DNA of 64,000 bases from Escherichia coli O127:H6 str. E2348/69 (GTDB lineage Bacteria > Pseudomonadota > Gammaproteobacteria > Enterobacterales > Enterobacteriaceae), in assembly GCF_000026545.1 (NCBI RefSeq), contig NC_011601.1; one strand, written 5' to 3'. Below, piece by piece: positions 62,411 to 64,000 of this stretch (its first letter is position 1; the number at the start of each line of letters is the position of its first letter). The notes below the pieces were generated by a model, which saw only the letters and a list, made by a program, of their open reading frames with translations, was not told the DNA's origin and made no database searches. A program made the translations under genes and the position numbers.

Positions 62411-62436
62411 GTGCACAGAAAACCCCCAGCTAGGCT
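62411..62436. mobile_element. IS200-like terminal hairpin fragment (left half), split by IS50-like copy 2; other half at 63987..64000
   Basis: gtgcacagaaaacccccagctaggct + [IS] + agctaggctggggg reconstitutes the same hairpin seen in the IS200-like element at 38466..38496 (reverse complement). Confidence 0.55.
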
Positions 62437-63986
62437 CTGTCTCTTATACACAAATCCCCACCCGGGGATTTGTGATGTCTGTCAGTCTGCTTTAGGGGGA
62501 CTCTTTCCATCCGGTAGTTTCCTTCCTCCCCGGCAGCGATTTTTTGAACTTTTTCCTCACCCGTTGATCTTCTCTTATATTTCATTTTCTTCGGGTCTGT
62601 TATGGTACTTTCTGATTGTTATTCATGGGCTAACGAGCAGTTTGGACATGCCCGTCTCGGTGATCCGCGTCGTACACGACGCCTTGTGTCACTGGCCTCT
62701 TCTCTCGCTCAGCATGCAGGTCTTTCTATTGTGAAATCATCCCAGTCCACTGCTCAGGTTGAAGGTGCGTACCGCCTGATACGTAACCCGTCTGTGTCCC
62801 CGCAAGCCATTGCCGAAGCCGGATTTACCGCCACTGTAAGGGCATGTGAGGCTCATCCGCTGCTCCTCGCGCTGGAAGACACCACCACCATTAACTTCAG
62901 TCACAGTACGGCATCTGATGACCTGGGGAATACCACCACTAACCCGAAGACGCGCGGGCTGCTGGCTCACTCTGTCCTGATGTACGCCCCCGACAGCGCC
63001 CTGCCAGTCGGTCTTATCGAACAGCAGCGCTGGAGTCGTGCCACGGACACCTACGGTGTTAAGCACCAGCGAAAAGAACGTCCCTATGAAGAAAAAGAAA
63101 GTTACCGCTGGCAGCAGGCTTCGGAGCGCATGGCCGAACGGCTGGGGGAGATACAGAAACGGGTAATCACTGTCTGTGACCGGGAAGCGGATATCTGGCA
63201 TTACCTGCATTATAAAGTCAGCCACGGGCAGCGCTTCGTGGTGCGTGCAGCACAGAATCGCCGGCTGGAAGAAGCACCCGGCAAGCTCTTCGAACTGCCG
63301 GAAGTCCTGGCAACCGCGGGAAGCCACACGCTGAATGTGATGCAAAAAGGCGGGCGGGCAGCCCGCCAGGCCCGGATGTTCATCAGTTACAGCGAAGTCA
63401 GCATAAAAAATCCCGACAACAGCGGCCAGGCGCTCCCGCTCACGTATGTCTGTTGCCGGGAGCAGGCAGAGGACGGCGCCTGCTGGCATCTGCTGACGTC
63501 AGAAAAAGTGGCGAGTGCCGCCGATGCGCGACGTATCGTCAGCCATTACGAGCGACGCTGGCTGATAGAGGAATACCACAAGGCGTGGAAAAGTGGTGGT
63601 ACATGTGTGGAATCGCTGCGAATGCAGACCCGGGATAACCTCGAGCGCATGGTGGTTATCAAGGCGTTTATCGCGGTGCGGGTGCTGGGCCTGCGGCAGG
63701 GCGGTATCAGTGAAGAAACACAAAATGACAGCTGTGAGAAAATACTGACGCCGACAGAGTGGAAACTGCTGTGGGTTAAGCTGGAAGGAAAACCGCTTCC
63801 GTCACAGATGCCGACACTGAAATGGGCCTGTCTGAAACTGGCGAAACTGGGGCGATGGCATGACAGCAAACGCACCGGTCGCCCCGGTTGGGTAGTCATG
63901 TGGGATGGCTGGTTCAGACTTCAGGATATGGTTGAGGGTTACCTGGTGATGAAGTCTCTTGATCAGGAGATCTGATCAAGAGACAG
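62437..63986 (+). mobile_element. IS4-family, IS50(Tn5)-like insertion sequence, copy 2
   Basis: Same termini as copy 1 and an identical transposase ORF; flanked by the 9-bp direct repeat AGCTAGGCT. Confidence 0.85.
62602..63975 (+). CDS. IS50-like DDE transposase (457 aa), identical to copy 1
   Basis: Protein identical to the ORF at 36413..37786. Confidence 0.85.
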   Translation: MVLSDCYSWANEQFGHARLGDPRRTRRLVSLASSLAQHAGLSIVKSSQSTAQVEGAYRLIRNPSVSPQAIAEAGFTATVRACEAHPLLLALEDTTTINFSHSTASDDLGNTTTNPKTRGLLAHSVLMYAPDSALPVGLIEQQRWSRATDTYGVKHQRKERPYEEKESYRWQQASERMAERLGEIQKRVITVCDREADIWHYLHYKVSHGQRFVVRAAQNRRLEEAPGKLFELPEVLATAGSHTLNVMQKGGRAARQARMFISYSEVSIKNPDNSGQALPLTYVCCREQAEDGACWHLLTSEKVASAADARRIVSHYERRWLIEEYHKAWKSGGTCVESLRMQTRDNLERMVVIKAFIAVRVLGLRQGGISEETQNDSCEKILTPTEWKLLWVKLEGKPLPSQMPTLKWACLKLAKLGRWHDSKRTGRPGWVVMWDGWFRLQDMVEGYLVMKSLDQEI

Positions 63987-64000
63987 AGCTAGGCTGGGGG

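Follow-up and report, generated by a model that had tools for sequence, protein, structure and literature searches.

Tn5 transposase is the standard "random" insertion tool. Goryshin reportedly found in 1998 that Tn5 inserts near-randomly, with a weak symmetric consensus (A-GNTYWRANC-T), and its target duplication is fixed at 9 bp; no structure with target DNA is known to explain these weak preferences. Here we describe a natural relative, the insertion sequence (IS) ISEc13, in a 64,000-nucleotide stretch of the genome of Escherichia coli O127:H6 str. E2348/69 (contig NC_011601.1; hereafter the window). The window holds two copies of the element, and the second, at its far end, is our main subject. 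ISEc13 is a Tn5-type element with a strict symmetric target, and the insertion of copy 2 is an ordinary instance of this rule. The element is catalogued and its target rule appears to be undescribed: the literature searched, with subscription journals and ISfinder outside its reach, gave no account of hairpin or terminator targeting by ISEc13 or the IS50 subgroup, and the papers mentioning ISEc13 that it did yield do not discuss targets.

Within the IS4 family, IS10/Tn10 and IS231A share with ISEc13 a symmetric target and a two-fold symmetric transpososome. IS10 reportedly follows the consensus NGCTNAGCN inside its 9-bp duplication, as Halling and Kleckner are said to have found in 1982, and IS231A the consensus GGG(N)5CCC, a report attributed to Hallet in 1994. 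IS231A and ISEc13 both use inverted G/C runs, with opposite polarity (CCYCY...RGRGG in ISEc13). IS231A typically lies in the terminal inverted repeats of another transposon, Tn4430, which parallels the presence of ISEc13 in the ends of IS200. Palindromes are targets of other elements too. IS1397, ISKpn1, ISPsy8, ISPpu9/10 and ISRm22 insert at the symmetry axis of extragenic palindromes, and ISRm22 (IS4 family, IS4Sa subgroup) has all nine of its copies in repetitive extragenic palindromes (REPs) (PMC1525189, PMC2266710); the text of these two papers does not name the IS50 subgroup as palindrome-targeting. Elements that target REPs or bacterial interspersed mosaic elements use one specific repeat family, whereas the hairpins entered by ISEc13 are unique and unrelated to one another (terminators, phage hairpins, IS200 ends), with nothing in common but short C-Y-C-Y arms. 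In staphylococci, IS1272/TnSha1 (IS1182 family) goes into inverted repeats that are confirmed terminators, with repeated strikes and in both orientations (PMC4923244). Unlike ISEc13, it has no reported sequence consensus, inserts in the stem, deletes part of the target, makes no duplication, and belongs to another transposase family and another host.

The element at the end of the window had been described as IS50-like, and this is borne out. It is ISEc13, a single-open-reading-frame DDE IS of the Tn5 type (cut-and-paste), in the IS50 subgroup of the IS4 family:

62437..63986, + strand: ISEc13 copy 2, intact, 1550 bp, 100% identical to the copies annotated ISEc13 in E2348/69
62602..63975, + strand: transposase gene, 457 amino acids (translation, Protein Data Bank (PDB) search, NCBIfam NF033590)

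On re-reading the sequence, copy 2 starts with CTGTCTCTTATACAC at 62437 and finishes with GATCAAGAGACAG at 63986 (in longer form, AGATCTGATCAAGAGACAG). It is identical over 1550/1550 nucleotides to the E2348/69 copies labelled "IS4-like element ISEc13 family transposase"; the IS and its flank match the E2348/69 record NZ_CP059840.2 at 99.9-100%, a window coordinate being 1173056 minus the record coordinate. The transposase aligns end to end with that of Tn5 (E = 6e-84, 42% identity in the PDB search), including the DDE and YREK residues (motifs DTT, DREAD and Y..RW.IEE.HK.WK), and scores 514 bits against NF033590, for a cut-off of 160. Its protein cluster bears the name ISEc13 transposase and has few full-length variants on long contigs; P0006 gave only fragments at contig ends. 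With IS50/Tn5, ISEc13 thus shares a homologous full-length transposase, near-same 19-bp ends, a duplication of about 9 bp and a length of about 1.5 kb. The ends and the 9-bp duplication found here agree with the values given for the IS50 subgroup, i.e., short terminal inverted repeats beginning 5'-CT and target duplications of 8-9 bp (Table 1, PMC2266710). ISEc13 occupies 30 places on the E2348/69 chromosome. Of 5426 complete E. coli genomes, 2991 contain it, and in 873 of these a match spans 80% of the element or more; numerous plasmids from Escherichia, Shigella and Salmonella carry it as well. Since the copies in E2348/69 appear intact and are nearly identical, the family is probably active in this strain.

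Copy 2 interrupts the left-end hairpin of an IS200C element, most of which lies past the end of the window:

62428..62436: left target duplication AGCTAGGCT, 9 bp (sequence re-read)
63987..63995: right target duplication AGCTAGGCT, 9 bp (sequence re-read)
62411..62436, + strand: left end of IS200C copy 2, outer 26 nucleotides (flank matches, empty site, identity with copy 1)
63996..64000, + strand: GGGGG, where the right arm of the IS200C hairpin begins (the element runs on past the window)
62378..62405, + strand: hydN terminator-like hairpin AGGTTCATCGC-agatta-GCGATGAACCT, with an 11-bp stem of mixed composition

The initial annotation had claimed a 9-bp flanking repeat, a target identical to the terminal hairpin of an IS200-like element elsewhere in the window, and a second IS200 copy beyond position 64000. 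All three hold. The repeats are present on re-reading, a match expected by chance with a probability of about 4e-6, and are followed outward by CCCCC (62423-62427) on the left and GGGGG (63996-64000) on the right. Without the IS and one repeat, the target reads gtgcacagaaaaCCCCCAGCtagGCTGGGGG, which is the reverse complement of 38465-38495; the repeat finder pairs the same regions (I4, arms 38470-38501 and 62405-36, 32 nucleotides, 97%). The outer 26 nucleotides of IS200C copy 2 consist of GTGCACAGAAAA followed by the left arm and loop of the hairpin. They are identical to the left end of the other IS200C copy and are severed by ISEc13 from the remaining 685 nucleotides, most of them past the window end (L001, 8097-8781; L numbers identify the individual sequences compared). 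There the right repeat is followed by GGGGGTTCCGG, tnpA and the right-end hairpin. In the E2348/69 record, the IS200C tnpA lies 127 bp past the end of ISEc13 (L001, 8214-8672, annotated IS200C family transposase). Its product (Y1/HUH, about 150 amino acids) scores 146 bits against NCBIfam NF033573, for a cut-off of 55, and the Rfam family STnc490, the art200 region of IS200, matches at L001 8081-8204 with 117 bits. The right-end hairpin, CCTCCGGC-tat-GCCGGAGG, is about 8 nucleotides from the right end.

The limits of this IS200C copy come from other strains. The hydN flank in other E. coli genomes matches only up to window position 62410-62411, and strain RM14723 (L002) has a site without IS200C; therefore, the element starts at 62411, the first position given in the initial annotation. 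Comparison of the empty and occupied sites (L002 and L001) shows no duplication; TTATT precedes the left end and is found again at the right end. The joint differs by one base, so that the boundary is uncertain by 1-2 nucleotides. The reconstructed IS200C is 711 bp long with its left hairpin at nucleotides 13-31. This fits the architecture of IS200, an element of about 707 bp with a left-end hairpin and a 5' untranslated (art200) region and without terminal inverted repeats, in which the hairpin at nucleotides 12-34 is a bidirectional rho-independent terminator (PMC4513863). The hairpin struck by copy 2 corresponds to this terminator. A simple terminator scanner did not call the intact left-end hairpin at 38465-38483, probably due to a TT absorbed into the stem, and its status as a terminator thus rests on the literature. 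The hydN hairpin is close by, its stem ending 5 bp before the IS200C left end and about 30 bp from the ISEc13 junction. It is strong and was not used.

The other ISEc13 copy of the window has also entered an IS200C:

36248..37797, + strand: ISEc13 copy 1, a loop insertion in the IS200C copy 1 right-end hairpin
36225..38495, - strand: IS200C copy 1, 711 bp without ISEc13 copy 1 and one repeat, with intact tnpA (annotated)
38465..38483, - strand: intact and empty left-end hairpin of this IS200C, CCCCCAGC-cta-GCTGGGGG, with the sequence found in the hairpin split by ISEc13 copy 2

Copy 1 is flanked by CGGCATAGCC at 36238-47 and 37798-807, which we read as a duplication of 10 bp, and its host hairpin, CCTCCGGC-ata-GCCGGAGG, is the right-end hairpin of IS200C copy 1. 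Once reassembled (36225-36247 plus 37808-38495, reverse-complemented), this IS200C is identical to copy 2 over 711/711 nucleotides. A point that had gone unnoticed is that the hairpin hit by copy 1 and the left-end hairpin cited for comparison with copy 2 are the two ends of one and the same IS200C. Hence, both ISEc13 copies of the window occupy terminal hairpin loops of IS200C, copy 1 at the right end and copy 2 at the left end. They are both on the + strand and differ by 1 nucleotide in 1550. With starts 26,189 bp apart, they agree with the earlier description of direct copies separated by 24.6 kb. They were also said to be independent insertions without recombination between them, and indeed each has its own duplication and the repeats are not swapped.

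Is this preference for hairpin loops general? We gathered insertions from ten places in E. coli CP148541.1, viral contigs, eight further E. coli genomes, a 1564-bp plasmid variant and 120 metagenome contigs found with the left-end sequence. Relatives with 39-53% protein identity were taken from species-representative genomes, a scan that gave no ISEc13 proper. In about 40 insertions other than that of copy 2, ISEc13 and its relatives lie regularly in C-rich/G-rich inverted repeats, and in marine and soil bacteria, relatives with 45-49% identity are likewise inside terminator-like hairpins. For quantification we used 20 distinct ISEc13 sites with a clean duplication (the window, L032-L048 and L177-L184), where the duplication is of 8 bp in 14 sites, 9 bp in 5 and 10 bp in 1. 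The best palindrome axis within 6 nucleotides coincides with the center of the duplication in 14 of them. In 11/20, the center is exactly that of an uninterrupted Watson-Crick stem of 5 bp or more, for a background of 0.66% of the window axes (P = 1.5e-19). Many sites are 15-25 bp past the stop codons of convergent genes, according to the gene tables, and resemble bidirectional terminators. Examples of hairpin sites are CTCCCCC|GCGTGAAGC|GGGGGAG between agp and yccJ and ATCCCC|CCGCTCGG|GGGGATTTTTTT. Loop-centered insertion is thus real and typical for ISEc13. The agp-yccJ hairpin is occupied in two strains in the same orientation, with a duplication of 9 bp in one (L034) and 8 bp in the other (L182); these are either two independent events with different stagger or the result of a 1-nucleotide loss at the joint. 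A symmetric target should be entered in both orientations, and this was seen at single sites (L037 and L047, L032 and L051) and at the IS200 left-end hairpin (the window and L176). A candidate orientation bias relative to terminator T-runs was dropped: the targets of the relatives are symmetric, bordered by A-tracts at one flank and by T-tracts at the opposite flank.

One could argue that there is no real preference, and that insertion is near-random as in Tn5, with survivors found only in harmless intergenic hairpins. The intergenic location of 19 of the 20 sites would fit this explanation, given that roughly every second motif pair in the window (see below) is genic. Yet selection cannot center the duplication on the dyad within 0.5 nucleotides in 14-15 of 20 sites, nor impose the same base at one position in all 40 half-sites. 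Stems of at least 7 bp, which occur at 0.06% of the background axes, are found at the center of 8/20 sites (P = 2e-21), and the same hairpins were struck repeatedly and in both orientations. We regard this explanation as extremely unlikely.

The 20 sites follow a simple rule, CYCY|N8-10|RGRG, in which two inverted half-sites abut the duplication. The composition of the 40 half-sites is as follows:

Position -5: C in 28/40
Position -4: C in 40/40
Position -3: C or T (30 C and 9 T of 40)
Position -2: C in 39/40
Position -1: T or C (24 T and 13 C of 40)
Position +1: C or G in 30/40

The rule was derived from 15 sites and then checked on newly fetched ones: it held in 9 of the 10 half-sites of five new sites, and in 4/4 half-sites of the 1564-bp plasmid variant. 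Both IS200C hairpins fit it, the left one as CCCCC|AGCTAGGCT|GGGGG and the right one as CCTCC|GGCTATGCC|GGAGG. This is where ISEc13 departs from Tn5, with a near-invariant C-Y-C-Y just outside duplications that vary from 8 to 10 bp and are mostly of 8 bp.

The initial annotation went further than loop-centered insertion and proposed structure-directed target choice. The former is general, as seen above; the latter is only partly supported. Under this proposal an extruded hairpin or cruciform, or a single-stranded hairpin at a fork or in a transcription bubble, would be recognized as such, with the stems cut at a set depth and the C-rich arm being secondary. It would account for the coincidence of the duplication center with the dyad and for duplication lengths that depend on how long the loop is and on whether its number of bases is even (8 bp) or odd (9 bp), reaching 12 bp in relatives. 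Also in its favor, complementarity extends beyond the half-site preferences, the arms covary in relatives, many targets resemble real terminators between convergent genes, and IS1272/TnSha1 provides a precedent of hairpin targeting without a primary-sequence requirement (PMC4923244). Still, C-Y-C-Y is present in all 20 sites, with the near-invariance at -4 and -2 given above. A sample of 96 kb of E. coli DNA contains 77 GC-rich hairpins with stems of 6 bp or more, of which the 5' arm is C-rich in only 13, mixed in 59 and G-rich in 5; therefore, a choice made on structure only would not give 20/20. The mixed and G-rich classes, 64/77 of this background, are not used in any of the 20 sites, and the unused 11-bp hydN stem is a case in point. 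Conversely, the central run of contiguous pairs is shorter than 5 in 9/20 sites, several with 2-4 pairs only, and the E2348/69 copy inside dgoD (L177), the sole intragenic site of the 20, is in TCTCT|CCCATGCA|GGCGG, where a stem cannot form. Two strand transfers 8-10 nucleotides apart on opposite strands also suit a duplex, whereas a cruciform puts these points on separate hairpins. ISEc13 differs from IS1272-like elements in that its targets share a primary-sequence motif and that not every site is in a hairpin-forming repeat. We thus consider structure-directed choice unlikely and favor a sequence motif, rather than structure, as the necessary feature of the target.

We propose that the main determinant is the symmetric recognition of half-sites in duplex DNA, to which we assign a probability of about 0.7. 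The ISEc13 transposase would prefer two inverted 5'-(C)C-Y-C-Y-3' half-sites 8-10 bp apart, read in duplex DNA by a two-fold symmetric transpososome. On its own strand, each transposon 3' end would be attached directly 3' of the C-Y-C-Y, following standard DDE chemistry. Copy 2 went in with a 9-bp staggered cut centered exactly on the dyad of the IS200C left-end hairpin, and the duplication then holds the loop and the inner stem. A pair of inverted C-rich half-sites necessarily makes up a C-rich/G-rich inverted repeat, and therefore the best natural matches to the motif are hairpins such as terminators and the ends of IS200C.

Several observations weigh against half-site recognition as a full account. 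Targets are more palindromic than independent half-sites predict, both at positions -10 to -6 (36/75 matches for 20 expected, p = 0.0002) and at the inner positions +1 to +4 (28/60 for 18.4 expected, p = 0.006). Strict motif pairs in the window are genic in 7 of 13 cases versus 1/20 intragenic among the used sites; the 11 unoccupied pairs include these 7 in genes. Something more than the motif of 4-5 nucleotides thus matters, which could be structure, longer contacts, flanks rich in A/T or the elimination by selection of insertions that disrupt genes. The relatives have covarying arms (ggct/agcc, gcca/tggc, gccg/cggc, ggga/tccc, ccca/tggg), and their duplications range from 8 to 12 bp yet remain dyad-centered, with A-tracts and T-tracts flanking the stems. 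The covariation and the variable stagger are awkward for a rigid duplex-binding dimer and keep a structural contribution alive. Besides, most sites come from few genomes and the analysis is of sequences only. Within the window, the motif is occupied in 2/4 hairpin-type sites versus 0/9 non-hairpin ones, a contrast that is not significant in so small a sample (Fisher p about 0.08). Two sites combining motif and hairpin are unoccupied, at 20376-20393 (TCTCTGT-atca-ACAGAGA) and at 38465-38483, and are predicted landing sites for further ISEc13 copies.

The repeated association with IS200 raises another question: could an IS200::ISEc13 composite spread as one piece, so that hairpins only appear to be hot spots? 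The junction AGCTAGGCT|ISEc13 does recur beside IS200 left ends in many metagenome contigs. Yet the exact junctions of the window were found only in three E2348/69 assemblies and, for the copy 2 joint, in one plasmid remnant, a 27-nucleotide piece of ISEc13 at the same IS200 left-end joint in plasmid p2 of strain cM8a (L175). The two copies of the window are in different hairpins and in different orientations relative to IS200C. In the chromosome of strain CP131_Sichuan (L176), the right end of ISEc13 abuts the outer half of the IS200 left-end hairpin, in the opposite orientation, and in metagenome contigs at least 4 different sequences flank the IS200 left-end half upstream. Moreover, a split subterminal hairpin should disable recognition by the IS200 TnpA. 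A composite is thus very unlikely, and recurrent insertion under the half-site rule is our preferred explanation for the association. IS200/IS605 transposases act on subterminal hairpins (PMC3333891). An insertion of 1.55 kb in either loop should thus immobilize an IS200C copy, because TnpA needs these hairpins, and the copies split by ISEc13 are presumably immobile. Copy 2 would, in addition, destroy the terminator that shields the IS200 tnpA.

Insertions in both ends of one IS200 may have further consequences. In two contexts (L070 and L064/L076), one ISEc13 stands between the left half of a left-end hairpin and the right half of a right-end hairpin. This is most simply explained if the two hairpins of a single IS200 were struck in the same orientation and recombination then deleted the IS200 body. 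ISEc13 is full length in L070 and decayed to 930-957 bp in the L064/L076 group. The decayed form lacks nucleotides 532-1120, is surrounded by IS200 end halves and has a single conserved context, aaatggcatccttttt...gcaattttcaccacgc. It was seen in metagenome contigs (L064, L076, L086, L099, L101, L102, L130 and L168) and at 2470-2570 of L176. It recurs in many metagenome assemblies with sequence drift and is therefore an old, fixed fossil. The partial ISEc13 matches found in about 2100 E. coli genomes may include similar relics. Shorter forms were also observed. In L080 (1603-1652), the outer halves of an IS200-like left-end and right-end hairpin enclose a perfect palindrome of 50 bp made of two left ends, CTGTCTCTTATACACAAATCCCCgggaGGGGATTTGTGTATAAGAGACAG, and in L164 (about 5000-5049) and L085 (2229-2278) only the first 50 nucleotides of ISEc13 remain in the IS200 left-end hairpin. 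These may be derivatives resembling miniature inverted-repeat transposable elements, products of an internal pseudo-end, or assembly artefacts.

Recombination between copies has left other traces. Target duplications are exchanged between the members of three pairs of copies: L038/L039, inverted and about 60 kb apart in CP148541.1, L006/L014 in Alishewanella jeotgali, and L191/L192. Such exchanges point to IS copies having recombined with one another, producing inversions or other rearrangements. In a metagenome-assembled genome (MAG) of Rhodanobacteraceae (L018), the flanking 9-mers are reverse complements (GGCAAAGCC and GGCTTTGCC) instead of direct repeats, and the loop is inverted between the two sides. 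These flanks may result from recombination between copies in two oppositely oriented identical hairpins.

The ends of ISEc13 link it closely to IS50 and carry a hairpin of their own:

62437..62455, + strand: left terminal repeat CTGTCTCTTATACACAAAT (sequence re-read)
63968..63986, - strand: right terminal repeat CTGTCTCTTGATCAGATCT (sequence re-read; repeat finder I7)
62450..62473, + strand: subterminal hairpin ACAAATCCCC-ACCC-GGGGATTTGT (sequence and relatives compared)

The left repeat matches the IS50 outside end and the engineered mosaic end at 17/19 positions each, and the right repeat is identical to the IS50 inside end (19/19), including its two GATC (Dam) sites. The left end is thus a natural near-"mosaic" end. 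The right repeat and an internal inverted copy of it form a palindrome at 63954-63984 (GTCTCTTGATCAG-gagat-CTGATCAAGAGAC). In relatives (L062, L067, L069, L078, L093, L105, L114, L127, L163 and others), an intrinsic terminator directly follows the 19-bp left end, as AAATCCC[stem-loop]GGGGATTTTTTTGAAC at nucleotides 17-55 of each IS. Its stems vary with the IS type yet remain complementary (CCCTGCTAA/TTAGCGGGG, CCCTAAGC/GCTTAGGG, CCCCGGCAT/ATGCCGGGG). ISEc13 has kept the subterminal hairpin and lost the T-run. It seems that an IS that splits a host terminator brings a replacement, which would also shield the transposase gene from read-through.

These features lead us to a broader and doubtful possibility. 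A wide Tn5-family clade, comprising ISEc13, its 45-49% identical relatives in Alishewanella, in Alteromonas and in MAGs assigned to Pseudomonadales and Rhodanobacteraceae, and elements of many metagenome contigs, might recognize terminator-type hairpins as structures. With every strand transfer anchored to the corresponding arm of the stem, the duplication (8-12 bp) would track the loop, and the left-end terminator of the IS would replace the one destroyed in the host. If true, this would be a "terminator-swap" safe-haven strategy, and the clade would be a natural example of a target-specific Tn5-type transpososome.

The remainder of the window includes other mobile elements and repeats. IS200C copy 1, next to the 34400-36225 region, lies between luxS and an accessory pair encoding an ATP-binding protein and an RNA ligase family protein. 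Beside hypF, a cluster of IS fragments (55173-59062) comprises an IS1397-like IS3 pseudogene, an intact ISEc21 (IS110 family) and IS3 fragments, and the inverted repeats I1/I2 (6124-6214 and 58669-58756, 75-79%) touch this cluster. A 140-bp tandem repeat at 41977-42570 (D1) is an ordinary array of one tRNA-Ser and four tRNA-Arg downstream of csrA. The window starts (1-3150) within an espC/EspG-domain islet.

The combination of near-same ends and a near-invariant target makes ISEc13 a natural relative through which to approach target capture by the Tn5-type transpososome, and possibly the means of biasing Tn5 itself. For genome annotation, the rule predicts where ISEc13 lands. For the genomes that host it, ISEc13 clusters at terminators and at both ends of IS200C, presumably disabling these IS200C copies. 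Its copies mediate inversions, and its pairs can delete the body of IS200, leaving fossils that are widespread in metagenomes.

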